Below, piece after piece: positions 7,974-62,004 of a stretch of DNA of 64,000 bases; within the stretch, counting starts at the first letter, position 1, and the number at the start of each line of letters is the position of its first letter. Location: IMG/VR virus record IMGVR_UViG_3300013093_000001, positions 49,906 to 113,905 of that record; one strand, 5' to 3'. A model generated the notes under the pieces. The model was not told the DNA's origin and did no database searches. It saw only the letters and a list, made by a program, of their open reading frames with translations. The DNA is from a virus. A program made the translations under genes and the position numbers.

Positions 7974-8831
7974 CTAGCTGACCTTCCTGGTCGGCGCTGC
8001 TCGCTTAGCTGGCGCTTTCTTAGGCGCAGCCTTCTTAGCTGGTGTCTTACCAGCCGGATGCCGCTTGACGGACGCTTCCAGCTGCGCCATCAAGTCGGAC
8101 ACGTCGTCGTCGCGCTGGTCCAGATCAACGACGCTGGTCAACACGCCACCCTTAGCTTTCGTGTCAATCAACGCCGCGACCTGCGCGGTGTAGGTGTCAA
8201 CGAAGTTGGCGGGACTAAAGTCCTCAATCATGCTGTCAACGACTGCGTGCGCCATTTCCAGCATTTTGGGTGACTCAATGGTCCCGTTTAAATGCTGCAA
8301 ACCATTAGCGTCACGGATTTCGTCCAGCCAAATCAGGGTGTGCATGACCAACACGTTGCCAAGGACGCGGATGACAGCCATTTGCTGTCGTGTTCGCAAC
8401 ACAAACTTTGCGACCGCAACAACATCTGACTCCACCATGACCCGACGCAACAGCGCGTAACCTTGAGAGCTGTTGTCTGTGGGTTCCAAAAAGTAACTGG
8501 ACTCCCACATAATCGGGTCAATCTCGTCACTGTGACAAAACTGGACCACCTCAATGGCCGACAACTTATTGGCTTCCTGCAACTGCGCCAGGTCGTCATC
8601 GGTAATAACGACAATCTTGTCGTCATCAACCAGCTTGCCTTTAATGACTTCGTCAGACCGTGGGTTGACGCCACACTTCTTACACACGCGGGGCTGACCA
8701 ATCGCACCCTCGCAACCTGCATGGAACAGGTTAAACGAGATGTCATGGCTGTCCGTTGCCTTGTAGAGTTTGACACCCACATTCACTAAACCGAAGTTCA
8801 GTGACGTGTTTTTCACTGATCTCATACCCAT
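7974..8831 (-). CDS. ku: Ku DNA end-binding protein (NHEJ)
   Basis: SLNFGLVNVGVKLYKAT, EIDPI..SSYFLEP..GYALLR, DLMAQLEASV, basic PAKK tail. Confidence 0.95.
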   Translation of the reverse strand: MGMRSVKNTSLNFGLVNVGVKLYKATDSHDISFNLFHAGCEGAIGQPRVCKKCGVNPRSDEVIKGKLVDDDKIVVITDDDLAQLQEANKLSAIEVVQFCHSDEIDPIMWESSYFLEPTDNSSQGYALLRRVMVESDVVAVAKFVLRTRQQMAVIRVLGNVLVMHTLIWLDEIRDANGLQHLNGTIESPKMLEMAHAVVDSMIEDFSPANFVDTYTAQVAALIDTKAKGGVLTSVVDLDQRDDDVSDLMAQLEASVKRHPAGKTPAKKAAPKKAPAKRAAPTRKVS

Positions 8832-10954: not shown

Positions 10955-11115
10955 CACTCTGGTCCGTTCGCCCAAAAATCCAGCAACTCAAGAATTCCGG
11001 TGAGGGCTTCGGCAATAGCTATCTGCGCGTGGTCCTGGCTAGTTGGACGCAAATCCGCACGCCCGTTTTTAGCCCAACCGATCCGCTCTCGCGCATTTTT
11101 CAGGTGTTGATTCAC
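10954..11115 (-). CDS. hypothetical protein
   Basis: GTG after repeat SD. Confidence 0.6.
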   Translation of the reverse strand: MNQHLKNARERIGWAKNGRADLRPTSQDHAQIAIAEALTGILELLDFWANGPE

Positions 11116-11186
11116 TTTTCCTCCAATCTGGTCCGGCATTTGCCGGACTCGTACCCCGGCCAGGTTCGACCCTGGCCGGGGCGTGT

Positions 11187-11648
11187 CTAGCTCGCTATGA
11201 CGCCGCTACCCTCGCAACGCAGGCAGGTCTGGTATCCCAGCGACTCGTGGTCGTAGTCAAACCATTGCGACCCTGGTTCAAGTTGCAGAAGCTTGCTGCG
11301 GTGCAATTCCTCGCTGTAGTTAAAGCCTTCGCCGCTGCAACCCGCGCAAGTGCGCTTGCCTGTCAACTGCAATTCCAGTTCGTAGACAATCGCCGCAACC
11401 TCACAGTTGCAAATATTGACGCTGTGATCGCAACCCAAATCGTCTGAGAGGTATTCAATCAACGACGCCACCAGCGCCTTGGGTACAGGTTGACTGTCAC
11501 CCCGCTCTGGGTGTTTTTCCATCTCAGCGCGGTAGTCAGCGATCTCAGTTCTGCGCATCAATGTCCAAGACGGACGTTCGATGGGGTCACTGACCCGCAA
11601 CGCCTCACTCAGCAGGACATTCTCAATTTCGACCCACTCAGTAGACAT
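11187..11648 (-). CDS. DnaJ-type Zn-finger protein
   Basis: CDHSVNICNC, CAGCSGEG, CLRCEGSG. Confidence 0.75.
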   Translation of the reverse strand: MSTEWVEIENVLLSEALRVSDPIERPSWTLMRRTEIADYRAEMEKHPERGDSQPVPKALVASLIEYLSDDLGCDHSVNICNCEVAAIVYELELQLTGKRTCAGCSGEGFNYSEELHRSKLLQLEPGSQWFDYDHESLGYQTCLRCEGSGVIAS

Positions 11649-13366: not shown

Positions 13367-13422
13367 TTCTCATAAACCTCCTCCTAACATCCCCGACCCT
13401 GTGTCGGGGAAATCTGTGTGGG

Positions 13423-13539
13423 GAGGCGGCGGCGCAGGTACTGCGCCCGAGCCATGTAACCGGGCAAGGCAATCCTTGCTTCCATTGCCACCAAAAATGA
13501 ATGAAAACGGTGGGATGGTGAGTTTAACGCCGCCGCCTC
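13423..13539. ncRNA. structured RNA motif, copy A (CAGGTAC...TGAGTTTAA core)
   Basis: 12-bp closing stem GAGGCGGCGGCG/CGCCGCCGCCTC, internal hairpins. Confidence 0.65.
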
Positions 13540-13572
13540 AAGCCTCAAAAAGTTTGTGTGGAAAGGTGGTGG

Positions 13573-13693
13573 GGGGGCGGCGGCGCAGGTACTACACGCC
13601 CCGTAGTAAAAGGGCGCTTATTGGTAGTCCTTACTTTCCAATTTCCCACCAGCAAGGAACGAGAAATTGGTTGAGCTTAACGCCGCCGCCTCC
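13573..13693. ncRNA. structured RNA motif, copy B
   Basis: same closing stem and core, different internal stems. Confidence 0.65.
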
Positions 13694-13696
13694 AGC

Positions 13697-16979: not shown

Positions 16980-17113
16980 TGGTGCTCCTCCTTATAACCA
17001 AAGTGCGACTCAGGCAGCGTCACGGTCAACTCACCGGCAAGAAAAGCTACGGCCTGTTCGCGACTGAGTCGCATCTTTTGGTACTCCCAAATGTCGCGCT
17101 CGTCGTACTCCAT
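16973..17113 (-). CDS. 46-aa hypothetical protein
   Basis: ATG after repeat SD. Confidence 0.55.
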   Translation of the reverse strand: MEYDERDIWEYQKMRLSREQAVAFLAGELTVTLPESHFGYKEEHQC

Positions 17114-17182
17114 TTCCTCCTCCAATCTGGTCAGCTTCTGCCAACCTCGTACCCCGGCCAGGTTCGACCCTGGCCGGGGCTT

Positions 17183-17542
17183 TCACGCCATCTGTTTACA
17201 CGTCCCATCTGCGCTGTGCTTATCCGGCGGCGTCCAGAAGTGTGTCAAACACCCATGTACCGACCTGAGATACCGTTCTACGTCGGGGTGATCTAATTCA
17301 TCTGCCGGGTTGTCGACACGAGAACAAATCTCATTCCACATGACGTCTTCCAACACCGACCCGGTGAATGCGTCTTGGCTCCTACGCCGCTGGTAATCAT
17401 GTACCAGCAACTCGTCGGACAACTCAATGACCTGATCATTGATGTCTTCTCTGACGCAGTCGCTCACCATACCCTGTAGCGGATTAGCACTGGACGGTAA
17501 ACCAAAACCCTCATAGGGTAAAGGCTGCCAATCTCCCTGCAT
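17183..17542 (-). CDS. hypothetical protein
   Basis: ATG after repeat SD. Confidence 0.7.
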   Translation of the reverse strand: MQGDWQPLPYEGFGLPSSANPLQGMVSDCVREDINDQVIELSDELLVHDYQRRRSQDAFTGSVLEDVMWNEICSRVDNPADELDHPDVERYLRSVHGCLTHFWTPPDKHSADGTCKQMA

Positions 17543-18803: not shown

Positions 18804-18990
18804 GCGACGCAGGTACAGTACGCCAGAGGATAGCTGGCGGTCACTCGGGCCGCATCGCAACATGGCTATGCGCGACCTGAGTGGACTGTCCTTGCATTCC
18901 CGCTCCAAAGGGAGCAATCTTACCGCCGAGAAATTGGGCACTCGGCCTCTGCGGCAAGCAAAAACCTTCGGGGGGTGAGTTTAACGTCGC
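18804..18990. ncRNA. structured RNA motif, copy C, occupying a whole inter-repeat slot
   Basis: GCGACG CAGGTAC ... TGAGTTTAA CGTCGC; no credible ORF; upstream repeat has a degraded SD. Confidence 0.65.
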
Positions 18991-19059
18991 TTCCTCTTTT
19001 GTGGTCGGCGTTCTTGCCGACCTCGTGTCCCAGGCAGGTTCGACCCTACCTGGGACTGC

Positions 19060-19890: not shown

Positions 19891-20346
19891 CTAAGCTTCA
19901 ACCGACTGCGACTTCAACGCAGCAATCTGCTGCTGCAACCGCTCGATCTCAGCCACCGGGTCACCCATCATCTGGGTAAACGCCTGCTCAACCGCAGTCA
20001 CAATCCGGTCGGCAGGGTTCAAGCGATAAATCAGGCCTTTTTCATAACCCGACTCACCCTTAATTCCGGCGTAAAGGTTGGTTCCTGCGCGGTTCCGCTT
20101 GACCACGGCCACTCGCCCGTCGTCCATGCGGTACTCACCCGGCTCTGTCACGCGCTCTGCGGCGGGTTTACCACCGGCAAAGGGCGCTTCTAGGGCCTTC
20201 GCAATCAAGGCGCTGGCCTGTTCAGCTGTCATTCCAACAGCTAAAAACTGGTCAATCGCCGACCGCAAGCCGTCTGGTACTTCTCGCTTGACCAGCAGGT
20301 CACCGAGAAAGCTCAGCTGCTTTTCAGTCGCCATTCTTATCGCCAT
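19891..20346 (-). CDS. hypothetical protein (ATEKQ motif)
   Basis: ATG after repeat SD. Confidence 0.75.
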   Translation of the reverse strand: MAIRMATEKQLSFLGDLLVKREVPDGLRSAIDQFLAVGMTAEQASALIAKALEAPFAGGKPAAERVTEPGEYRMDDGRVAVVKRNRAGTNLYAGIKGESGYEKGLIYRLNPADRIVTAVEQAFTQMMGDPVAEIERLQQQIAALKSQSVEA

Positions 20347-20425
20347 GTTTCCTCCTCCATGGGTCCGACCCTGTGCCAGACCTCGTGTCCGGTGCGGTTT
20401 TGACACCGCACCGGACTCCCTAGCA

Positions 20426-20745
20426 ACCCAACATCGCTGTTGGGGGTGGGGCGGTAGGGGTTCCCTACCCACCCCAGTTTGGAGGTTAGAGGAAATCACT
20501 ATTCATTAGACCTGTCGGTGCCACATGCGACCAGCTTCGCGCTGGCCGGGTTTGCACCCTAGCGCCTTGTGTTCACTAGCGGTGCCTCTACGTGCGCGAC
20601 CGCTGCTTCACTTTTGCCACCATCGTCCAAGTGCGCGACGGCGGCCACAAAGCACGCAGGCGCAAGGCTGCTCAGCCAGGTTGCGTGGACACCACAGATA
20701 TAGGTGTCCCGTAAAACCCGACCGGCAACTTTGCGCCTAAAACAA
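20426..20745 (-). ncRNA. ~320-nt structured ncRNA, copy 1
   Basis: homologous to 25445-25789 with compensatory changes; G.U pairs form on minus strand. Confidence 0.7.
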
Positions 20746-20967
20746 GTATACCCAGGGGCCTGAGTGTTGCCTACCCCTAAGCACGACTAATTCTTTCTAA
20801 CCCAAACCTGCTGGCGGCTGCCGGAAGGCTTTACCTTCCCCAGCCAGCCTCGTACCCGGTGTGGCTTCGACACCATACCGGGCCTCCTTACTTGTGCGTC
20901 CAGTCCCGGTAAAGCACCGCGAACAGGGTGCAAGCCATAACAATCATGGCCTCAACAGCGGGTGACA

Positions 20968-21108
20968 TCATTTCTCCCGCTGGCTTTTCAGTCCCAAGCG
21001 TTGACGCACCCAGGCCAGACCTGGCGTTTCAGCCGGGGGCACATAATCCTGTGCGGGTTTAATCCCCTGCCAGACGCTCAACCCCATGTTGGGGTTCATG
21101 TATAGCAT
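20968..21108 (-). CDS. small hypothetical protein
   Basis: ATG after repeat SD. Confidence 0.55.
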   Translation of the reverse strand: MLYMNPNMGLSVWQGIKPAQDYVPPAETPGLAWVRQRLGLKSQREK

Positions 21109-21186
21109 TTCTATCCTCCTTCTAGGTCGGCCTCGTGCCAACCTCGTGTCCCGCGTGGGTTCGACCCCACGCGGGACCACCACCTA

Positions 21187-21372
21187 CTAGGAATTCTCCC
21201 AATTCCGGTAGCTCTTGTCTCGGCGTAACGCTTTCGCGTTTCGCTTCTTGCGCTGGTCTTGGTGGATACCAGCAGCGCCGGATCGTCGCAATTCAAGACG
21301 GGCTCGCAGTTGCTCCTCGCAGGCGCTCAGGTACTTGTCATCCACCAGTTGCAGATGACGCTTCATTATCAT
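21187..21372 (-). CDS. small basic protein
   Basis: ELRRSGAAGIH motif. Confidence 0.65.
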   Translation of the reverse strand: MIMKRHLQLVDDKYLSACEEQLRARLELRRSGAAGIHQDQRKKRNAKALRRDKSYRNWENS

Positions 21373-21460
21373 TATTTCCTCCTGTACCGGCTGGCTCTTT
21401 GCCAGCCTCGTACCCCGGCAGGTTCTGACACCCACCGGGGCCTGGGCCTTTATGGTCCTG

Positions 21461-21643
21461 CTAGAGCAGCACCAAATCTTCAGGCCACGCCTCATCTTCA
21501 CCGCCTGTGTCGAACTGGCCTGGATCCCATTCCAGGACAATGCCAATTCCGTTGGGGCCGTCCACCACCTCAACAACAGTTCCAATCATGGTAGGTGCAC
21601 CGCAAGAGCGGACACGATCTCCCGGTTTGAACTTTTTACTCAT
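21461..21643 (-). CDS. SH3-like small protein
   Basis: KFKPGDRVR..GTVVEV..VLEWD. Confidence 0.7.
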   Translation of the reverse strand: MSKKFKPGDRVRSCGAPTMIGTVVEVVDGPNGIGIVLEWDPGQFDTGGEDEAWPEDLVLL

Positions 21644-21718
21644 TCCTCCTCCACTCTGGTCGGCCTCGTACCGACCTCGTACCCGGTATGGCTTCGACAC
21701 CATACCGGGCCTCGTCAC

Positions 21719-21988
21719 TCAAGCAAAGTCTCGGTAGCGTTTTTCTGCTTCCACGACCGCTCGCGCGATCTTCGACGGTTCCAACCACTCCTGGTGACCG
21801 GACTTAGCTTCCGGCTGCTTCCAGTACCACGCCACGACCTCACTGTGCGTGTCTTCTGCTTTCCACCAGAACAAGCACGTTTCGTAGGTCAAGTCAGGTA
21901 ACTCGACCGTACTCACCAAGACCGAACCAACGCTCTCCAGCGTGACGACTTCTCGTTCGTGGTAACGGGCGTCTTCTTCGTAGTCCAT
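21719..21988 (-). CDS. hypothetical protein
   Basis: VSTV..YETCLF..AKSGH. Confidence 0.75.
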   Translation of the reverse strand: MDYEEDARYHEREVVTLESVGSVLVSTVELPDLTYETCLFWWKAEDTHSEVVAWYWKQPEAKSGHQEWLEPSKIARAVVEAEKRYRDFA

Positions 21989-22064
21989 TTTCTCCTCCTA
22001 ATCAGCTGACCGTTTGCCAGCTTTGCGCCCTGTGTGGTTTCGACACCACACAGGGCCATCTCAC

Positions 22065-22376
22065 TCAGTTGCGCCACCACGTTTCCCAGTCGTACATCTC
22101 ACTGTCGCTCAGGAACCCGTCGCCATCCGGGTCGGTACCAAACCGGGCGAACTCAATGCGCTTCGCCGCTAGGGCGAACTGCAAGTTCTTCGACTCTCCA
22201 GCCGGGACCAAAAACGTCACATCCCACACGGAGAAATCTGTACCGGAACCGGTGTCGTAGCCGTGGTGATCGGCAATGATCTGCTTCAGGAACACCCATT
22301 GGGGGTTTTCCCGTCCAGCGTCATCGCGCTCCGGGTAGGGCAGGTAAGCCTTGTACCGGTGCATTACTGTTGCCAT
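22065..22376 (-). CDS. hypothetical protein
   Basis: ATG after repeat SD. Confidence 0.75.
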   Translation of the reverse strand: MATVMHRYKAYLPYPERDDAGRENPQWVFLKQIIADHHGYDTGSGTDFSVWDVTFLVPAGESKNLQFALAAKRIEFARFGTDPDGDGFLSDSEMYDWETWWRN

Positions 22377-22454
22377 GTTTTCCTCCTCCAACGTGGTCCG
22401 GCCTTGTGCCGGACCTGCGTGCCCTGGCGGGTTCTGACACCCACCAGGGCTTTT

Positions 22455-22760
22455 CTAGCTGGTTGCCGCCTCAAACTCAGCGTTTAACTCAGCAACCTTC
22501 TGCTTGACCGTCCCATCCAGCCACGCTTGCGCCAGTTCATCAATTTTCGGTACCCGGTAGGGCCAAATCTCCCTGAACTCGCTCGCCAGCTTGAATTGCG
22601 CTGTCAAACACTCAGCCGTCATCTCCAACTTGCCGTCAAGTTCTTCTACTATAAACTTGACGAGCTGGGTTTCATTCTGACGGACGGCATCCAATTTCCG
22701 CCAAGTGTTGAAGACGCGCTCTCGCGCTTTTTCTAATTTGGTCGGTGGACCACCAATCAT
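22455..22760 (-). CDS. hypothetical protein
   Basis: ATG after repeat SD. Confidence 0.75.
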   Translation of the reverse strand: MIGGPPTKLEKARERVFNTWRKLDAVRQNETQLVKFIVEELDGKLEMTAECLTAQFKLASEFREIWPYRVPKIDELAQAWLDGTVKQKVAELNAEFEAATS

Positions 22761-22831
22761 TTTTCCTCCTCCTTATCTAGCCACTAGTGGCTTCGTACCG
22801 GTGCAGGGTTCGACCCCCACACCGGTTCCTT

Positions 22832-23101
22832 TTACTGCGAGAACTGCGCGTGGAGCTCTCGGGCGTACTCGGGTATAGCTGCTTTCCACCATGTCTCATA
22901 CCCAAGGTGTTGGGCAATTTGCTGCGCCAAGTGCAGCGCATCTTCCGGCGACAAGAACATGACCGCGTTGCTTCGGTCTGTTTTCGTTCCGGCCAGGTCA
23001 ATGACGACCTTCGTCCCGTCTTCCGTGCGGTGTACGTCTCGCCGTAGCGCGACGTAGTGCATGTAGACGGTGAAGGCGCTGCTTTCGTGGTCTTGTTCCA
23101 T
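22832..23101 (-). CDS. hypothetical protein
   Basis: ATG after repeat SD. Confidence 0.7.
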   Translation of the reverse strand: MEQDHESSAFTVYMHYVALRRDVHRTEDGTKVVIDLAGTKTDRSNAVMFLSPEDALHLAQQIAQHLGYETWWKAAIPEYARELHAQFSQ

Positions 23102-23178
23102 TTTTCCTCCTCCAACATGGGTTCGGCTTCTTGCCGGACCTCGCGTCCCGGTCAGGTTCGACGCTGACCGGGACTCCC

Positions 23179-23424
23179 TCACACGACCGTGAAATTCCCG
23201 GTCTTGGCTTTCACCTTCACGTTCGCGTACCAGCGCCGATCCCGGTAGGGGTCGGGGCCAACCACCACGTCGCTCGGTGTCAGCTCTGCAGCTTTCACAG
23301 TCCCACGGTTGCTGAACGCTGAGGTGTCGGTGAATGCCACCGGCTGCTCAGCCTCAACAGCGTCCTTCAACGCTTTCTTGGACGGGAAGTTACGTCCTCC
23401 TAGCGTGGCGTGGAAGTTGCTCAT
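23179..23424 (-). CDS. hypothetical protein
   Basis: FPSKKALKDAV..VVGPDPYRDRRWYA. Confidence 0.75.
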   Translation of the reverse strand: MSNFHATLGGRNFPSKKALKDAVEAEQPVAFTDTSAFSNRGTVKAAELTPSDVVVGPDPYRDRRWYANVKVKAKTGNFTVV

Positions 23425-23509
23425 TATTTTTCCTCCTCCAACATGGGTCCGGCCTTGTGCCGGACCCTGCGTGCCCCCGCCAGGTTCGACCCTGACGGGG
23501 GCTTCTGTC

Positions 23510-23854
23510 CTACTGGACGTATCCGTTGTCAACACACTCCTGGCAGGTAAAAAACCCTGTCTTTAGGTTGTAGAACCCATCCCAGCCGGTGTCCTTCGCA
23601 TTACAGGACCAGCAATCCGGGGCTGGCATGATTTCGGGCGCTTCGTCCTTGAATGCGTCCCACTCTTTGGGCGTCACCCCGCTGATGAGAAATTCTCTCT
23701 CATCAACACTCAGGTGTGGGAACGCGTCTTGCACGCACTCTCCCACGCCGCGCTCTCGCGCTTCCAGCCACGCTTCCATCGCGTGGGGTGCAACATCAAT
23801 GTCCATCTGGTTCACGTAACCAGTGATGATCGATGTCTTCTGGACTGTGACCAT
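23510..23854 (-). CDS. hypothetical protein
   Basis: VQDAFPHLSVDEREFLISGVTP.EW motif. Confidence 0.75.
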   Translation of the reverse strand: MVTVQKTSIITGYVNQMDIDVAPHAMEAWLEARERGVGECVQDAFPHLSVDEREFLISGVTPKEWDAFKDEAPEIMPAPDCWSCNAKDTGWDGFYNLKTGFFTCQECVDNGYVQ

Positions 23855-23934
23855 TCTTTCCTCCTCCAACTTGGCTCGACCTCATGTCAAGCCTCGTACC
23901 CGGTGGTGGTTCGACCCACCACCGGGCCTTGTGG

Positions 23935-24153
23935 CTAGTGCACCAATTCGTTCGGCATCCAGCCTGGTTGACGGTCTGAGTAGTGTGACTCATCGTCAAC
24001 CGCAGTAATCGTCGCTAACTGCATTCCGTCACCTTCGCTTAGCTTGCATATCGAAGCATTCGCGATTCCCTGCTCTTGCATCGCCAGCAAGGTCTTCAGG
24101 TTCCGTGTGGTCAGTTCAACGCGAAGTTCGTTTCCAACTGCGAACACCTTCAT
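23935..24153 (-). CDS. hypothetical protein
   Basis: ATG after repeat SD. Confidence 0.7.
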   Translation of the reverse strand: MKVFAVGNELRVELTTRNLKTLLAMQEQGIANASICKLSEGDGMQLATITAVDDESHYSDRQPGWMPNELVH

Positions 24154-24235
24154 TTTTTCCTCCTCCAACTTGGCTTGGCCTCGTGCCAGCCTCGTACCCC
24201 TGCCAGGTTCGACCCTGACAGGGGCTCCTTCCGCG

Positions 24236-24682
24236 TCAGCGGTAAAAACCATCACAATCGGTGTCATCTAACCCTAATACGTGGACGAATAGCTTCTCCC
24301 CACACATCAGGCATATCTGCTGGCTGTACTCTTCCAACAACTGATTTTCGACTGCCGAAGCCAGCTCTTCCCCAGACAGACCTTGTTCAGTAAAACTGCT
24401 GAACAACTCGACACAGCGGGGTGCTACCCTCACTGCGTCAATGTGGAAGTCTGCTATCCAGTCCCAGTTCAGTTGTTTATCGTCACCGTGTGCTTTACTA
24501 CTCGTTGACCCGGTGTGATACACATAATCCGACCAGCGGATGTATGTACCGGCCATCGGTGTACCAGAGAGTCTGTAGTGACGATCAACGTATGCCGGTT
24601 CGTGTGGCGGTTCTAATACCGTCTCAACGGTAATCAAAACCGACTCAACCGACAGGGCAGTTTGCAGCAACCGTGCGTCCAC
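24236..24682 (-). CDS. hypothetical protein
   Basis: GTG after repeat SD. Confidence 0.7.
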   Translation of the reverse strand: MDARLLQTALSVESVLITVETVLEPPHEPAYVDRHYRLSGTPMAGTYIRWSDYVYHTGSTSSKAHGDDKQLNWDWIADFHIDAVRVAPRCVELFSSFTEQGLSGEELASAVENQLLEEYSQQICLMCGEKLFVHVLGLDDTDCDGFYR

Positions 24683-24765
24683 TGCTGTTTCCTCCTCCAA
24701 CTTGGCTCGACCTCATGTCAAGCCTCGTACCCGGTACAGTTTCGAGGCTGTACCGGGCCTGTGCG

Positions 24766-24927
24766 CTACGCCAACCCGGCGCGGCGCAGTGCGTCCCGCA
24801 TCGCGGGGTTGCGGTAGTGCGTACCCCGCACCGGGGCGGGACCGCTCGCCTTCGCAGGCATGGCGGCCGGAGTGGCCTCTGCGGCCACAACCGCGACCAG
24901 CTTCCGGTTCACGTTGTATGCGTTCAC
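24766..24927 (-). CDS. small hypothetical protein
   Basis: GTG after repeat SD; NPAMRDALRRAGL. Confidence 0.6.
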   Translation of the reverse strand: MNAYNVNRKLVAVVAAEATPAAMPAKASGPAPVRGTHYRNPAMRDALRRAGLA

Positions 24928-25007
24928 TTTTTTCCTCCTCCAACATGGGCCTGACCTTTTGCCAAGCCTCGTACCCCGGCAGGTTCTGACACCCACCGGG
25001 GCCTTCG

Positions 25008-25280
25008 TCACACGGCGACGATCTTCAATTCGCCTCGCGTGACCAATCGGTACATCGGGCGACACCCATCATCGGTCCGACACAGGGTATCAATGGCGCA
25101 ACGAATGTCATCGACAAGCGTCTCAACTGGGTCATCACCCCTGCGCCAGTTCGGGTAGCGGAACACGTTCTTCATGTCCGCTTCGAACGCAGCAATGTAA
25201 CCAGTGCGTCCAAGAATCTCGTCGGCGTTCCGGGCAAGTGCAACCCAGGCCGCTTCGTCGTAAATCTCCGACATCCTCAT
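25008..25280 (-). CDS. hypothetical protein, first ORF of leftward array
   Basis: ATG after GGAG; start uncertain. Confidence 0.6.
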   Translation of the reverse strand: MRMSEIYDEAAWVALARNADEILGRTGYIAAFEADMKNVFRYPNWRRGDDPVETLVDDIRCAIDTLCRTDDGCRPMYRLVTRGELKIVAV

Positions 25281-25444
25281 GTGACAGCTCCAATCTGTCT
25301 CTAACTCGGTGGCCTCAACTGAGGTCACCGCCTCCGCTTCGTCAGCGGCAGGATGGTTGGTTGTGCAGCGCGGGGTAAATCTCCCAGCCGCGCTGCACAA
25401 CCTCGTGGCCGGTGCGGTTTTGACACCGCACCGGCCTCCAGTAC

Positions 25445-25789
25445 ACCCAACATCGCTGTTGGGGCGGGGGTGGGCGGGGGCTCCCCACCCACCCCCTGTT
25501 TGGAGGTTAGAGGAAATCACTATGTATCAAACCTGTCGGTGCTACATGCGACCGGCTCTTGCCAGTCGGGTTTGCGCCCTAGCTCGTCGTGTCCACTAGC
25601 AAGGCCTCTAACCGCGCACCTGCTGCTTCACTTTTGCCGACATCGCCCAAGTGCGCGACGGCGGCCACAACGAACAACGCAAAGAAGCCGGTCAAGGTAG
25701 CACCTACAGGGATGTACCCCTGTAGGTTGCGGACCCCTTAGATAAGGGTGTCCCTAAAACCCCGACCGGCAACTTTGCGCCTAAAACAA
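25445..25789 (-). ncRNA. ~345-nt structured ncRNA, copy 2, at 5' end of array
   Basis: homologous to 20426-20745. Confidence 0.7.
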
Positions 25790-25932
25790 ACGTACCAACG
25801 GGCAGGAGCGACCACAACCCCCAATCTTTTCTGGTCACTCATTCTTTGGCGCGGGGTCGGCGCTGGCAGCGGCTGGTTGAGCGGCAATTCTTTCCGCTAC
25901 CCAGGATGCTGGTTTCTTTCTCCACCAAGATT

Positions 25933-26016
25933 GAGTGACCGGAGCCGGTACCGGCTTCGGAGTGGCTGAGCGGAGCGACACTCGGAGCAAAAATCGGAGT
26001 GACATTCGGAGTAACT
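25933..26016. repeat. short direct repeats CGGAG(T/C)GAC
   Basis: about six CGGAG cores at roughly 10-13 bp spacing. Confidence 0.5.
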
Positions 26017-26295
26017 CTGATTGCGTGAGTTGATAGCGGCTCTGCACTAGGACTGCGCCCTAGCTTACTCGGCCCTGGCAGCCTCCGCGCTGTCCTCCGC
26101 GCTGTCCTCCAGCAGCCGCTCCCCAGCCACTCTGGGCAGTTGTGGCAGAAAAGATTGGGTGGCGTGAAGAGTAAACCCGTTGCACAGAACTATTGCCTGG
26201 TGTCAAGCTAGGTATTACGCTTGCCTTATGGCAAGCGTTACACGACACACCACCACGGTGGACAACGCAGCGCCAGGGACGGAGGTGACAACAAA

Positions 26296-26697
26296 ATGAG
26301 CAAACGCCAAAACGGCAAGGCACTGCCAATGAGCAGTGTCGCAGGCAAGGGTCACAAGCGAGCACCCCGCCTGTCGGCGAGGGTACCGGAGCACCTGCTA
26401 GCACCTAGCGAGAGGTCCACCGGCTCGCTGCGGTTGGACGACCCGGCACCACGCGAGATTAAGATCGTCGCGCCGCCGCAACCCGCCGTGGTTCCAAGCA
26501 AGGACCACAGCGCCGACGAGCGGCTGGCAGAGGGACGGGTCGGCAAGGACCGCCCCCTGCTTGAGTCGCTGGGTGTGGTAGACGGAGCGTTGTGGGTAGA
26601 CGCCCAGTTTACCGCATTGCCCCGGTTCAGCTGGTCGTACCGCAAGGATGGTACAGCTGAGTACAAGCGCCGCGACCCGGAGCTTGGGTGGTACTGA
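26296..26697 (+). CDS. hypothetical protein
   Basis: GGAGG SD; hairpin follows stop. Confidence 0.7.
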   Translation: MSKRQNGKALPMSSVAGKGHKRAPRLSARVPEHLLAPSERSTGSLRLDDPAPREIKIVAPPQPAVVPSKDHSADERLAEGRVGKDRPLLESLGVVDGALWVDAQFTALPRFSWSYRKDGTAEYKRRDPELGWY

Positions 26698-40621: not shown

Positions 40622-41245
40622 GCCAACTTGTCATGCCCAGCACTGCCTGCCGTGCTAAGCCCAGCCCAGCCGCACCAAACCCGACCTCGCCGTACCGTAC
40701 CTCGCCTGCCTCGCCGTGCCAGACCCGACCTCGCCATGCCAGACCTCACCGCGCCAAACCGTACCGCGCCCCGCCTGCCATGCCATGCCTTGCGATGCCA
40801 TGCCGTACCACGCCTCACCTTGCCTGCCTCGCTAGCCTCACCTTGCCTGCCTCGCCATACCATTCCTCGCCTCGCCTTGCCGCGCCTGCCTTGCCACACC
40901 CTGCCTCGACACGCCAAGCAAAGCCCAGCCTCGCCTGCCATGACTTGCCTCAACGTGACATACCCGGCCTTGACCCGCCTGCCCTGCCTTGACTTGCCTC
41001 GACTTGCCTCAACCAGCCTCGACTGCCGCGCCACACCGCGCCAGACCGCGCCATCCACACCCAGCCGCTCCGTGCCTCGACTGCGTCGCCGCGCCATGCC
41101 TGACCGGGACTGCCTCGCCATACCAGGCCGTGCCGTGCCATGCCAAACCGCGCCCTGCCCGGTCCCGCCATGCCTTGCCACGCCTTGACTGCCGTGACTT
41201 GACAAACCCCGCCGTGCCCAACCAAACCTGACCATGCCTGCCAGC
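40622..41245 (-). ncRNA. GGY-NN pentamer array (~12 units), candidate guide-RNA array
   Basis: + strand reads (RCC-NN)n; units separated by GCCTGCC/GACTGC phase breaks at 40645, 40704, 40773, 40822, 40845, 40884, 40933, 40977, 41021, 41079, 41108, 41187, 41236. Confidence 0.85.
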
Positions 41246-54061: not shown

Positions 54062-56503
54062 TTAGATCACGCTCGACCGAATGATAGACGCGTTAGAGTT
54101 ACCCGAGGGCAGAATGACAATGTTCTTCTGGCCGTGCTGTAGGTAGACGGTGTTGTTGATTGTCGGAGCGATGGAGAGGTTGGCGTTGGCGGCCCAAGCG
54201 TATCTGGCGCTGTTTGTGCGTATCGGGGTGACAGACAGCGATGCAGTCGCGTAGATGGTTTTGGCTGCTGCCGTGGTGCGTGTCGGCGTGACGGACAGCG
54301 ACGTGTTGGCGTTGGCGGTGTGCTGTATCGCCGTCGTGATAGTCGGGGTGACGGTGAGGAGCGCGCCCTTGGAGGTCTGTTCGACTTCATTTGCGGTGCG
54401 TATCGGGGTGACAGACAGCGATGCAGTCGCGTAGATGGTTTTGGCTGCTGTCGTGGTGCGTGTCGGCGTGACGGACAGAGATGCAGTTGCTCTGTGTGTG
54501 ACCGACACCGCAGTGGTGTACGTCGGGGTGACCGTCAGCGCGGCGGTTCCGTATCGGGTCTTGGACTGTGCTGCCGCCAACGTCGGTGTCACCGTGAGCA
54601 GAGCAGCAGATTTGATGGTCGCCTTCGCGGTAATCGAGACCGTTGGCGTGACCGTGAGGATTGTTGTCGCCGCGTACTCTGTTTTGGATCCACTGACCGA
54701 GGGAGTGGGGGTGACCGACAGTGACGAGGTGGCGTGAACCGTTTTGGCTGTCGCCGTGGACGCGGTGGGAGTAACGGACAGCGACGACGTGGCGTGGATG
54801 GTCTTTGCCGCCGTAACGGTGCGCGTCGGGCTGGCCGTCAGCGCGGCATTGCCCTTGGCTGTGTGCTGTACCGCCAGCGTGATGTTCGGCGTTACGGTAA
54901 CGCTGATGCCTGCTGATGTTGTTTCTACCTCAACTGCTGTGCGTATCGGTATCACGTTCAGGGCTGCGTTGGCCTTCGCTGTCCTAAACGGCGTTGTTTG
55001 CAGGTTCGGTGTGACGCTCAACGCTGCTTGCGGTCTTGTATTCCTGTGGCTGTCGGTTGTCGCTTGGGTAACGACAGCAAGAATTGCTGCCGCCTTCCTC
55101 GTCTTGGACAATGCCAGCGTTGCGGTGGGTGTTACGGCCAAGGCAGCGGTGACGTGAATTGTCTTGGCGATGGCAGCGGTTTCTACTGGGACAATCACTG
55201 CCGCGCTGCTCGCGGCGTGGTTGACCTTTGCGGCAGCGCCAATGTTGGGCCGAACTAGAAGGCTGACGCCATTGATGGGTATGGTCTTTAGTTCAACCGC
55301 CGTTTCTATCGGGGTGACCGCCAATGCGGCAGCCAGGGTTGCGGTGCGGTGTGTTGTAGTGGTGACAGTCGGTTGGTTTGTGATCGCTGCATTGACGTGA
55401 ATGGTCTTGGTAATAGTTGAAGTCGTTGCCGGTGCGACGGCTTTCGTTGCTGCAACTCTTGCCGGGTCTAGGTACTGTGCCGCGCTGAACGCAGGAGTTA
55501 CGGTTGTGGCGGCGCTGATGTGAATGGTTTTGGTGGTCGCAGCAGCGAGTGTTGGTGTCGCATTGAGGGTTGCGGCGGTAAAGCGGGTTCTGTGCGGCGT
55601 TACTAAAAAGTTTGGCGTGAAACTCAAGGTCACGGCGCTTATCGCAGTGCGGTGAGTCGTGGTAGTAATGCTCGGTGTGGCAGTAGCGGCAACGGAGAAT
55701 AAAGAGGCAACGTGAGCGTAAAAGGCCGGTGTCACGTTCTTTGTAGTGTTGGTGATTGCTGTTCTGTGGCTGCTGACTGCCGTCGTGGGTGTCACGGTCA
55801 GGGTCTTTTGTAGGAAGCCGGTCCTGTGCCCCGCCGCCGCCAGAATGGGCGTTGCGTAGAGCAGCGCAGGGTTGACACCCTCCAAGTTGTGGACGAATAT
55901 GCTGACGCTGGGTGTCACGGTCAGGCTGCTGTGAACCCTGGTTCGGTTAAAGGCAGTGGTGTTGACTGTTGGAGGTAGGGACAGTGTGGCCTGGTCGGTG
56001 GTTGACCTGTGCACCGTGAAGGACAGGTTTGGTGTGCATACCAGTGACGTTTGGCCGTAAGCGGTGCGGTGTCCTTGCGCGGTTTTACTCACTGCCAGTT
56101 GCAGGGAAGCCGCGGAGTAAACTGTTTTTGCTATCAGTAAGCTGATGCTGGGGTGAGCCAGGAATTGAGAGGTTGTTGCAGTCCGATTGGCCGCCGTGAC
56201 CTGCAATTGTGGTTCTAGGTTGAGCAGAAGATCACCATGCGTGATGCGGCCAATAACGCCAACAGAGGTTGGGATGACTTGCACAGAAGTCAACGCCAAC
56301 TCACTGTTGAATGTCAGCAGCGCATACAGTGTAGGTGTCGTGGCCTGGGACGACTGGATTCTGACCAGAATGCCAGCGGGGGTGACGTTCTCGGCCACAA
56401 CCAGCAGGTAGCGGTTCTCTTGCGGTATTAAGACATGCCGGTTTTCTGCGGGAACTGCTACGTCGCGGTTTTCCCCCTGGATGACGGCGACAGGGTACGT
56501 CAT
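54062..56503 (-). CDS. 813-aa Thr/Ala-rich protein with ~20-aa repeats (fibre-like)
   Basis: (A/S)xLxVTPxxT unit repeated more than 30 times. Confidence 0.85.
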   Translation of the reverse strand: MTYPVAVIQGENRDVAVPAENRHVLIPQENRYLLVVAENVTPAGILVRIQSSQATTPTLYALLTFNSELALTSVQVIPTSVGVIGRITHGDLLLNLEPQLQVTAANRTATTSQFLAHPSISLLIAKTVYSAASLQLAVSKTAQGHRTAYGQTSLVCTPNLSFTVHRSTTDQATLSLPPTVNTTAFNRTRVHSSLTVTPSVSIFVHNLEGVNPALLYATPILAAAGHRTGFLQKTLTVTPTTAVSSHRTAITNTTKNVTPAFYAHVASLFSVAATATPSITTTTHRTAISAVTLSFTPNFLVTPHRTRFTAATLNATPTLAAATTKTIHISAATTVTPAFSAAQYLDPARVAATKAVAPATTSTITKTIHVNAAITNQPTVTTTTHRTATLAAALAVTPIETAVELKTIPINGVSLLVRPNIGAAAKVNHAASSAAVIVPVETAAIAKTIHVTAALAVTPTATLALSKTRKAAAILAVVTQATTDSHRNTRPQAALSVTPNLQTTPFRTAKANAALNVIPIRTAVEVETTSAGISVTVTPNITLAVQHTAKGNAALTASPTRTVTAAKTIHATSSLSVTPTASTATAKTVHATSSLSVTPTPSVSGSKTEYAATTILTVTPTVSITAKATIKSAALLTVTPTLAAAQSKTRYGTAALTVTPTYTTAVSVTHRATASLSVTPTRTTTAAKTIYATASLSVTPIRTANEVEQTSKGALLTVTPTITTAIQHTANANTSLSVTPTRTTAAAKTIYATASLSVTPIRTNSARYAWAANANLSIAPTINNTVYLQHGQKNIVILPSGNSNASIIRSSVI

Positions 56504-60613: not shown

Positions 60614-60777
60614 TGCGACTTCCTTCTCCTTTCCTCTAATACCAACCGGATAGCTAATTCTGTTGCTTCTTCGCTGCGTTCGGGGTCCAGGGCACGCAGG
60701 ACGCTGCCTAGTATCTGTCTTATCTCTTCGCTGGTCAGCTCTTCGATTTCCTGGTCGTCGTCACTCTCGTACAACAT
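60610..60777 (-). CDS. small hypothetical protein
   Basis: coupled ORF. Confidence 0.55.
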   Translation of the reverse strand: MLYESDDDQEIEELTSEEIRQILGSVLRALDPERSEEATELAIRLVLEERRRKSQ

Positions 60778-61672
60778 CTTGTGGTCCCTTGTCTGTGCGT
60801 AGGCCACGCCAACTCGGGTGGCGTAGCGTTGCTTCCTTAGTCCATTCCATAAACCGGACCTCACCAACCGTCACCGGCTCCACAAACGTCATACCCTTAC
60901 CGACCCGCAATGTGTTCCCAAACGGGTTGGTGGCGGTTGCCAAGGGTGCATACAGGCTGTGTAGCGCGTCTAAATCATTGCCCGTAAACCCTGTACCCAC
61001 CTTGCCAACATAGGTCAGTCCACCGCCATTCGGTATACCCATCAGTAGGCTGCCGATGCCGCCACTGCGGTGGCCTTTACCCTCCAACCAGCCGCCAATG
61101 ACAACTTCCTGCGTACACCAATTCTTTGTCTTAACCCATAGGGGTGAGCGCTGTCCCGGCTTGTAGGTGCTGTCCCAGCGTTTGCAGACCACACCCTCCC
61201 ACTGCTGCTGCTGCGCGTACTCCAACGCCTGACCGCCGTGGTCTACATCAATTAAACCTGGGACTGTAATGGGCAGGGTTTGCGCCAGTAACTCCAAAAG
61301 TTTGCGCCGTTCCCGGTACGCGACATGCAGCAACGGGCGGCCATCAAGTTCCAGCAGGTCAAAGGCCCACAGTTGGACTTCGCCGCGCCTGTGGTTCTGC
61401 ATGGCGTTAAAGTCTGGTTGTCCATTCTTGCCAATAACCACCGCTTCACCGTCAATGGTCATCTGCTTAAACGCGCCGTTCTGGTTGACCAACTGCCGCA
61501 ACTGCGGGTAGTCGGCGGTCACGTCCCTGCCGCTGCGGGAGGTAATTCTGACGTTGCCGCCGTCAACCTCAACAATCACCCTGTAGCCGTCCCATTTACC
61601 CTCAAAAGCCCACTCGTCGGCCTTAAGGTTCGCCGCCTCACCACTCAACGCCAGCATGGGTTTGACAATCAT
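60761..61672 (-). CDS. ATP-dependent DNA ligase (LigD ligase-domain-like)
   Basis: EGKWDGYR, IDGEAV, AFDLL, EGVVCK, WVKTK, YVGKVGTGF, LRHPSWRGLR.DK. Confidence 0.95.
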   Translation of the reverse strand: MIVKPMLALSGEAANLKADEWAFEGKWDGYRVIVEVDGGNVRITSRSGRDVTADYPQLRQLVNQNGAFKQMTIDGEAVVIGKNGQPDFNAMQNHRRGEVQLWAFDLLELDGRPLLHVAYRERRKLLELLAQTLPITVPGLIDVDHGGQALEYAQQQQWEGVVCKRWDSTYKPGQRSPLWVKTKNWCTQEVVIGGWLEGKGHRSGGIGSLLMGIPNGGGLTYVGKVGTGFTGNDLDALHSLYAPLATATNPFGNTLRVGKGMTFVEPVTVGEVRFMEWTKEATLRHPSWRGLRTDKGPQDVVRE

Positions 61673-62004
61673 TGACGCTGCGCCCTCCACCGTGTCAAGG
61701 CCGCGTCAATGTCGCTAGCAACCTCCTGGTACGGCTTGTTCGGGTCGTGGTAAGCCTTTTTCCGGTCTTTGCGGTTGGGGTGGACCGTGGCCTCAGACCG
61801 CTGCTTGTGGTATTGCGACTCAGGCAGTCCATAATTCAGCGCATACGCCTGGTCTGTGGCTTGCCGCTCCGTTGCATGGGCTGTCACTACGTCTTTCTTG
61901 ACTTCGTCGTACACCAACCACGGTAAGTTGAGGACGTTCAGCAGAGGTACAAAGTCGGGCACGTCTGTCAATTTTACCGGTCGGTATCGCACAGGGTTGT
62001 CCAT
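61669..62004 (-). CDS. hypothetical protein
   Basis: ATGA overlap with ligase. Confidence 0.65.
   Translation of the reverse strand: MDNPVRYRPVKLTDVPDFVPLLNVLNLPWLVYDEVKKDVVTAHATERQATDQAYALNYGLPESQYHKQRSEATVHPNRKDRKKAYHDPNKPYQEVASDIDAALTRWRAQRQ

Follow-up and report, generated by a model that had tools for sequence, protein, structure and literature searches.

In the Cluster A mycobacteriophages L5, D29 and StarStuff, the early lytic promoter Pleft is separated from the first leftward gene by a non-coding region of ~500 nucleotides (nt), as documented by RNA-seq and Northern blots (PMC5712189). The non-coding RNA (ncRNA) made from Pleft is the most abundant phage transcript, is stable, is cut to species of 100-400 nt and is toxic to M. 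smegmatis, its function being unknown; a second ncRNA is found inside the Cluster A array, in an intergenic gap (63-64 in D29) (PMC5712189). Here we analyze a pair of paralogous units, copy A at 20380-20800 and copy B at 25400-25850, which are ~77-85% identical and lie in a 64,000-nt stretch of phage DNA (positions 49,906 to 113,905 of IMG/VR record IMGVR_UViG_3300013093_000001; hereafter the window, to which all coordinates refer). The phage genome, 113,905 bp long and with direct terminal repeats, comes from lake-water metagenomes, and the window is its right-hand 64 kb. Judged from the evidence set out below, each unit is a real, new and orphan structured RNA gene or leader. Our preferred reading, to which we give a probability of roughly 60%, is that the RNA is an independently promoted stable RNA or a promoter-proximal leader, analogous to the Pleft RNA.

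How far does the analogy go? Like the Pleft RNA, the present one occupies a non-coding stretch of several hundred nt before the first gene of a leftward operon and has no conserved open reading frame (ORF); a second ncRNA lies within the same array, and the probable host belongs to the mycobacterial clade. It is copy B, in a gap (25281-26295) with no coding signal, that has the Pleft position, behind a promoter that is here putative. A difference is that the head and internal copies in the present phage are paralogues, and that the RNA is embedded in hairpin-punctuated cassettes. Abundance, stability and toxicity have been shown for the L5 RNA; for the present RNA, the promoter, ends, expression, stability and early role are things that we infer. 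Homology to the L5 and D29 Pleft RNA was rejected, as our covariance model of the present RNA (R1), run with filters off on the L5 right end, gave at most 4 bits, and Smith-Waterman scores against the L5 and D29 regions equalled those of shuffles. A tRNA-like end in the L5 leader was likewise considered and rejected.

A second comparison is with the putL and putR antiterminator RNAs of phage HK022, which are ~70 nt long, consist of two stem-loops and lie in two divergent operons. The likeness is that of two diverged copies in early units, promoter-proximal, with the structure kept and no protein product. The present RNA, however, is 315-340 nt long with at least nine helices, and both copies are in one operon, so that the compact put layout is not seen here; a promoter-proximal position is plausible.

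The RNA-polymerase-binding RNAs Ms1 (~300 nt) and 6S bring the comparison to mycobacteria and other actinobacteria (PMC4191392, PMC9130861). Size (in the case of Ms1), actinobacterial setting and a high degree of structure are shared, whereas Ms1 and 6S are rods with a bubble at the center (PMC9130861) and the fold predicted for the present RNA has several domains and a three-way junction. The large ornate RNAs such as GOLLD and ROOL, of 500-800 nt, are widespread and have many homologues (PMC12286853). Like them, the present RNA is large, elaborate, phage-borne and of unknown function, and, like GOLLD, it comes from lake metagenomes; unlike them, it is seen as two copies in one phage lineage and has no match in Rfam. 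The array around the RNA has its own parallels. Cluster K mycobacteriophages have start-associated sequences (SAS/ESAS) with a conserved extended ribosome-binding-site (RBS) motif. The PeSL regulatory cassettes of T4-like phages have stem-loop motifs that flank small variable early genes, with cassette shuffling (PMC2839356, PMC4122927). Both resemble the present array in that repeated regulatory motifs flank small variable early genes; in those systems, though, the repeats are punctuating elements, whereas here a large ncRNA is cassette cargo in the place of an ORF.

Two copies of a unit in a leftward gene array

An earlier note on this DNA, made from the letters alone, reported two diverged copies of a structured RNA. 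The observation of a two-copy unit is real. With copy A as query, BLAST of the whole phage genome finds exactly two places, copy A itself at 100% and copy B at 77% over 380 nt (E 2.4e-83), and model R1 finds the same two only, at 174 and 171 bits. Runs of up to 29 nt are invariant inside units that are otherwise ~80% identical. The extent given in the earlier note (20426-20745 and 25445-25789) proved too small, for at the low-coordinate border the unit includes an array hairpin and linker that are near-identical in the two copies, and similarity ends exactly past the linker. At the high-coordinate border similarity fades near 20795-20800 in copy A and near 25850 in copy B, at the apparent decayed RBS and start codon of a former cassette. 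The units and their immediate neighbors are as follows.

20380-20800, minus strand: copy A, whole unit (decayed cassette start, promoter-like region, RNA, array hairpin, linker), from alignments with copy B
20380-20414, minus strand: array hairpin 1 (20389-20414) and linker (20380-20388) of copy A, co-duplicated with the RNA; from alignment and repeat family D8
20801-20883, minus strand: array element upstream of copy A lacking a Shine-Dalgarno (SD) sequence, with hairpin 1, linker, enlarged hairpin 2 and decayed RBS and start; family D1 copy at 20834-20883, no SD-led ORF
19891-20346, minus strand: orphan gene of 151 aa that follows copy A, led by a strong SD; weak match to PHROG 636, no Pfam match
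25400-25850, minus strand: copy B, whole unit, in the non-coding gap at the array head; from alignments and BLAST
25400-25434, minus strand: array hairpin 1 (25409-25434) and linker (25400-25408) after copy B, from alignment
25008-25280, minus strand: first array gene (90 aa), which follows copy B and has no relationship to its counterpart after copy A; no Pfam match

The array consists of ~40 small minus-strand genes, from ~25300 down to ~4000; all have an extended SD, and before most of them stands a two-hairpin element. About 45 such intergenic elements stand on the minus strand before nearly every small gene in 4700-25440 (for example at 11115-11190, 17113-17188 and 24157-24229). Their layout is a GC-rich hairpin of 10-12 bp, a conserved linker, a short hairpin and the extended SD, and the stems covary. 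Copy A takes up one slot of the array, behind an element that has both hairpins and no SD. Copy B lies in a non-coding gap of ~1 kb, bounded on one side by the first minus-strand gene with an SD, which starts at 25280, and on the other by the first plus-strand gene, which starts at 26296; copy B is thus at the head of the leftward array. Both placements are those of the earlier note. The proteins encoded downstream of the two copies are unrelated to each other, and a Pfam search assigned neither to a family. The protein after copy A is an orphan, matching only itself among 5.8 billion proteins, so synteny offers no route to homologues.

The array hairpin that adjoins the RNA (20389-20414 and 25409-25434) is identical in the two copies at 26 of 26 nt, while the RNAs are only ~80-85% identical, which suggests gene conversion or a stronger constraint on that hairpin. 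Upstream of copy B, the non-coding stretch 25851-26295 is rich in short direct repeats, among them five CTCCG-containing repeats at ~25930-26020 and a duplicated 12-mer at ~26090-26130; these could be operators or promoters of a divergent early region. Two other array slots, at 13391-13696 and 18804-19056, have been described as RNA-only, with three copies of a three-way-junction motif of smaller size. As these slots are not matched by model R1, their family is a different one from that of copies A and B.

A predicted fold on the minus strand

On which strand would the RNA be made? Its sense is that of the minus strand, as for the small-gene array. Minus-strand folds have energies of -181 (A) and -206 (B) kcal/mol, with z-scores of -6.7 and -7.5 and none of 100 shuffles as good, as against plus-strand z-scores of -1.5 and -5.0. 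Many pairs of the minus-strand consensus fold are G-U, moreover, and would turn into A-C mismatches if the plus strand were the RNA. Separate folds of the two copies agree, with nine helices in common; the helix names used here, P-a to P-l, are for predicted helices taken from these folds. Both copies have a long 5′ hairpin (P-a, P-b, P-c), to which copy B adds an inserted hairpin, then a three-way junction closed by P-e, with P-f, P-g and an invariant 9-nt joining strand. The small hairpin P-h, with a GCAA loop, and hairpin P-i follow, then a near-invariant and mostly unpaired strand of ~50 nt, and finally the GC-rich hairpin P-k and the invariant P-l with its GCGA loop. The predicted domains are these.

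20658-20738, minus strand: copy A 5′ domain, long irregular hairpin P-a/P-b/P-c, predicted 5′ end ~20738 at the first base of P-a; from folds
20562-20655, minus strand: copy A central three-way junction, P-e, P-f, P-g and the 9-nt invariant joining strand; from folds
20529-20559, minus strand: copy A P-h (20548-20559, GCAA tetraloop) and P-i (20529-20547); from folds
20477-20528, minus strand: copy A near-invariant, mostly unpaired 3′ strand, with an anti-SD-like part at 20477-20502 that has two CCUC motifs; from alignment and fold
20427-20476, minus strand: copy A 3′ hairpins P-k (20447-20476, GC-rich) and P-l (20427-20444, invariant, GCGA tetraloop); from folds
25676-25782, minus strand: copy B 5′ domain P-a/P-b/P-c with inserted hairpin P-d at 25700-25730; from folds
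25582-25675, minus strand: copy B central three-way junction P-e/P-f/P-g; from folds
25550-25579, minus strand: copy B P-h (25568-25579) and P-i (25550-25567); from folds
25498-25549, minus strand: copy B conserved 3′ strand with anti-SD-like block 25498-25523; from alignment
25446-25496, minus strand: copy B 3′ hairpins P-k (25466-25496) and P-l (25446-25463); from folds

Is the fold kept by selection? A 147-nt core has 44 predicted pairs, and both copies form every one of them. In five of these pairs both partners have been replaced, in another five a single replacement has left a different standard pair, and no pair is lost. As a control, shifting the 3′ partners by 1-3 columns leaves only 25-50% of the cells paired, with 0-1 double changes. 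Projecting the structure of one copy on the other breaks 26 pairs in the direction A to B and 22 from B to A. If as many substitutions are scattered at random, ~40-42 pairs are broken, and not one of 2000 such sets breaks as few as observed. Most of the remaining projected breaks come from misalignment by MAFFT around the insertion in copy B. A hand registration of P-b gives one double and four single compatible changes between the copies. Of the other helices, P-i shows one double change plus two compatible single ones, P-k shows two double changes, and P-c adds one or more further double changes. The five blocks that the earlier note singled out are all present and invariant in the pairwise alignment, and the stems between them, as it held, change in sequence and length while staying paired, as the folds, the compensatory changes and the extra hairpin of copy B indicate. 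We take this as good, though not conclusive, evidence that the fold of a two-copy minus-strand structured RNA is selected.

Nor do the units appear to code for protein, and they share no ORF, again as the earlier note had it. Each of the six frames has 2-9 stops in both copies, and the 91 substitutions fall 35/25/31 across the codon phases, with no 3-nt periodicity. An 11-codon frame common to the two copies was considered as a conserved small ORF and rejected, since its changes are mostly non-synonymous and it has no SD.

A related strain, represented by contigs from another lake-water study, is identical to the present phage over 20420-20682 and 25511-25816, ~570 nt in all, with no differences; neighboring cassettes show ~1% differences (for example 12 substitutions and 14 gap letters in 1 kb). 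This gives weak support for constraint on the RNAs, because some other stretches are likewise unchanged in that strain. Two cassettes are deleted in it, with joints at 23890/24189 and 21365/21637 that skip 298 and 271 nt, and one joint has 11 shared letters. Since the contigs join across cassettes, whole cassettes seem to be lost by recombination between repeated elements.

Such deletions bring up the thought that the units act as DNA (an origin, a site of recombination or cassette mobility, a region bound by protein), or that they are decaying ex-gene cassettes with no RNA function. The borders would suit this, with a decayed RBS and start codon on the 5′ side and, on the 3′ side, the array linker where cassettes appear to recombine, and a repeat-rich region adjoins copy B. 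But the pairing is strand-specific, with its many G-U pairs, and none of the substitutions that fall in the 44 core pairs abolishes pairing, a pattern that neither neutral decay nor a site in duplex DNA would produce; the invariant stretches of up to 29 nt within ~80% identical units tell the same way. We consider an explanation at the DNA level, or as a relic, very improbable.

A candidate start for each copy

The sequence TANNNT occurs at the same alignment column in both copies, as TATACT at 20750-20745 in copy A and TACGTT at 25794-25789 in copy B. It sits 7 nt before the base of P-a, and T, A and T are kept while all three N positions differ between the copies. The only other TANNNT that the copies have in common is inside an invariant block; the frequency of the motif on the minus strand is 0.0048 per nt. 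TANNNT is the main determinant of mycobacterial SigA promoters. The shared register before P-a, taken with this consensus, suggests that each unit has its own start and that a transcript runs from P-a. The candidate promoters are as follows.

20745-20773, minus strand: copy A candidate sigma-70/SigA-like promoter, -35-like hexamer 20768-20773, 17-nt spacer, -10 TATACT 20745-20750; from consensus scan and shared TANNNT register
25789-25817, minus strand: copy B candidate promoter, -35-like hexamer 25812-25817, 17-nt spacer, TG before -10 TACGTT 25789-25794; from the register shared with copy A

The copy A site, with a 4/6 match to the -35 hexamer and 17-nt spacing, is one of two promoter-like sites that a consensus scan found in 10 kb. 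Most likely, then, each unit brings its own SigA-type start and the RNA begins at P-a.

The conserved 3′ strand

The conserved 3′ strand, with its two CCUC motifs, has a complement that reads as the array RBS plus four extra bases. In copy A, folded from the predicted start, its mean unpaired probability is 0.69. Against array RBS windows its mean duplex energy is -15.5 kcal/mol, compared with -8.6 for random array windows and -12.2 for a generic 16S tail, and most of the 41 RBS windows show 7+6 bp of complementarity to it by way of the array RBS consensus. When the strand is shuffled so as to keep one CCUCC, however, 31 of 300 shuffles pair with the RBS windows as well, and so we do not treat the anti-RBS complementarity as established.

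Could the RNA act in cis, on the message that it heads? It might be a put-type processive antiterminator, carrying transcription through the ~45 GC-rich intergenic hairpins, or a translational switch that, in the manner of a riboswitch or T-box, masks the next SD with the CCUC strand. Each copy is followed at once by an array element and a gene, with no intervening terminator; one copy is at the head of the operon and the other 5 kb further in, and the duplex energies just given would fit the switch. The two downstream genes are unrelated, unlike those of riboswitch regulons, no riboswitch or T-box model matches, and the shuffles that equal the RBS pairing take away from that argument. As to antitermination, the RNA is 4-5 times the size of the put RNAs, and the intergenic hairpins lack U-tracts, so the need for it is unproven. 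A leader of this kind is possible, and we think it unlikely.

A regulator acting in trans is a related idea, in which the strand would pair with the shared extended RBS of ~40 array genes, timing or shutting off their translation. The complementarity to most RBS windows favors it, as does the strand itself, which is invariant between the copies and partly unpaired in the predictions. Once the CCUCC core is granted, though, that complementarity is statistically unremarkable, and the strand may have partners closer to hand. As read from the alignment and folds, its sequence also complements the terminal loops of P-g and P-f, which are SD-like and invariant, and the single difference between the copies in the P-f and P-g loops keeps the pairing. 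Two loop-to-strand pseudoknots may thus form within the RNA, and they would explain the invariance of both loops and strand. A trans-acting anti-RBS role is in our view quite improbable.

A bolder idea starts from the same features. Few bacterial and phage RNAs of more than 300 nt have an elaborate conserved structure, and several of those few have proved to be ribozymes or ribonucleoprotein scaffolds. With a compact fold, two GNRA loops, a three-way junction and two SD/anti-SD pseudoknots, all predicted, the present RNA might be the founding member of a new large-RNA class. It could be a ribozyme; or, as a mimic, it could engage the ribosome or the RBS common to ~40 early genes and so serve as a master switch of early translation. 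In either case it would be carried as mobile cargo of the cassettes. We regard this as improbable.

Search for relatives

Rfam 15 gave no match at gathering thresholds in the whole window. At E<=10, searches of a 6-kb region and of each unit alone gave chance hairpin matches only, of 12-23 bits where the thresholds are 36-106. This test covered transfer-messenger RNA (tmRNA), RNase P, 6S, Ms1, group I and II introns, GOLLD, ROOL, HEARO, T-box, riboswitches and small ribozymes, and ARAGORN found neither tRNA nor tmRNA. It bears out the earlier note, which had not recognized the RNA as tmRNA, RNase P, Ms1 or an intron. Ms1 identity was rejected on two counts, as a family covered by Rfam with no match at E<=10 and because the predicted fold is not rod-like.

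Other candidates were judged by their partners. An omega RNA (the guide of TnpB or IscB) was rejected because the complete phage genome has no PF07282 match, in a search whose control was positive in 8 of 14 genomes. A retron msr-msd or the template of a diversity-generating retroelement was rejected because there is no match to the PF00078 reverse transcriptase in the complete phage genome. With neither a TnpB-type nuclease nor a reverse transcriptase in the genome, guide-RNA and retron readings have no partner. A riboswitch or T-box leader was rejected since the downstream proteins are unrelated and without family and no aptamer model matches.

No homologue was found in the collections searched. 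Copy A had no blastn match (word size 11) among 50,697 phage records; 25 related phage contigs, three of them at least 96% complete, yielded none by BLAST or model R1, nor did exact and degenerate block scans of IMG/VR, JGI and ENA metagenome contigs and GTDB species genomes. Every pattern match from the block scans was re-scored with R1 and judged to be chance, two of them being also read by eye. As far as these searches reach, the RNA is new and an orphan, the motif not having been compared with the 10,006-candidate IMG/VR catalogue of structured RNAs (PMC10690425). The related phages have ~60-87% capsid identity and 62-66% G+C (55.7% here) and share almost no DNA with the present phage. The cassette architecture is absent from the three related phage genomes checked, those of soil phages, which are therefore uninformative on RNA cassettes.

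The host and other features of the window

What host does the phage infect? The capsid protein matches Mycobacterium phages only, at no more than 55% identity. A PPE-family protein is encoded at 1943-2953 on the plus strand, with an N-terminal PPE domain (E 3e-47) and a PPE-SVP C-terminal region; the PPE family is otherwise typical of mycobacterial cell-envelope and secreted proteins. A Ku homologue (7974-8831) and an ATP-dependent DNA ligase (60761-61690), both on the minus strand, are what we take to be an end-joining pair like that of mycobacteriophages Omega and Corndog. From the capsid relatives together with PPE, Ku and ligase, the host is likely to be mycobacterial or closely related.

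Elsewhere in the window, 40660-41220 is a C-rich repeat field with a period of 8-10 nt (families D10 and D16), and 54215-54967 is a repeat with a 60-nt period within an 813-aa minus-strand ORF, 54062-56503, that has no PHROG or Pfam match.

Discussion

The view of the earlier note, that of a new large phage ncRNA, is supported by the strong, strand-specific predicted fold, the compensatory changes, the lack of a coding signal, the lack of an Rfam match even at E<=10 and the lack of a homologue in the collections searched. For a family of two sequences, the reading as a structured minus-strand RNA has good support, while antiterminator, decoy and ribozyme, the roles put forward in that note, are candidates. 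The minus strand, the -10-like motif and the Pleft precedent were not part of that view.

Several points weigh against reading the RNA as a counterpart of the Pleft RNA. Both -35 sequences are weak, and shuffled sequence has promoter-like sites at least as often as this region does. A terminator scan found no intrinsic terminator (a hairpin plus U-tract) after the RNA, so a discrete 3′ end is a conjecture; that end could come from processing or from protection by three consecutive hairpins, or the RNA could be the leader of the downstream message. Column shuffles of the core equal the observed values in 16 of 500 cases, for two sequences that are paralogues from one genome. With only two sequences this control is weak, which is why we rate the evidence of selection on structure no higher than good. 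There is no sequence or structure homology to the L5 RNA, and the analogy is positional only. Finally, as the RNA has no homologue in the searched collections, conservation across lineages is unproven.

What would the unit do, if it is indeed a counterpart of the Pleft RNA? A possible course of events is as follows. The unit would be an ncRNA gene or leader that is the cargo of a cassette in a leftward array of small, probably early, genes. It would be transcribed on the minus strand from its own SigA-type promoter, with the TANNNT 7 nt before the first helix, and the RNA of ~315-340 nt would fold into a compact structure of several domains. In order from the 5′ end these would be a long hairpin, then the three-way junction and a pair of small hairpins, of which one has a GNRA loop, followed by the conserved, largely single-stranded strand with its two CCUC motifs and by two terminal hairpins, one of them GNRA. 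The co-duplicated array hairpin that follows may help to define or protect the 3′ end. By position the RNA would be the counterpart of the Cluster A Pleft RNA. As a working guess, it would act through its exposed conserved strand and its loops on the translation or transcription machinery.

The precedent, a structured ncRNA placed first in an early leftward operon with a second inside the array, is documented yet unexplained, and the present phage would seem to offer an analogous case. If so, an unrelated RNA at the same position in a distant mycobacteriophage-like lineage suggests a common need, for a stable structured RNA made first from the early promoter, that has been met by non-homologous molecules. 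The two diverged paralogues are a natural mutagenesis set for structure probing. Phage small-gene cassette systems, it would appear, can carry RNA as cargo, and not only proteins.

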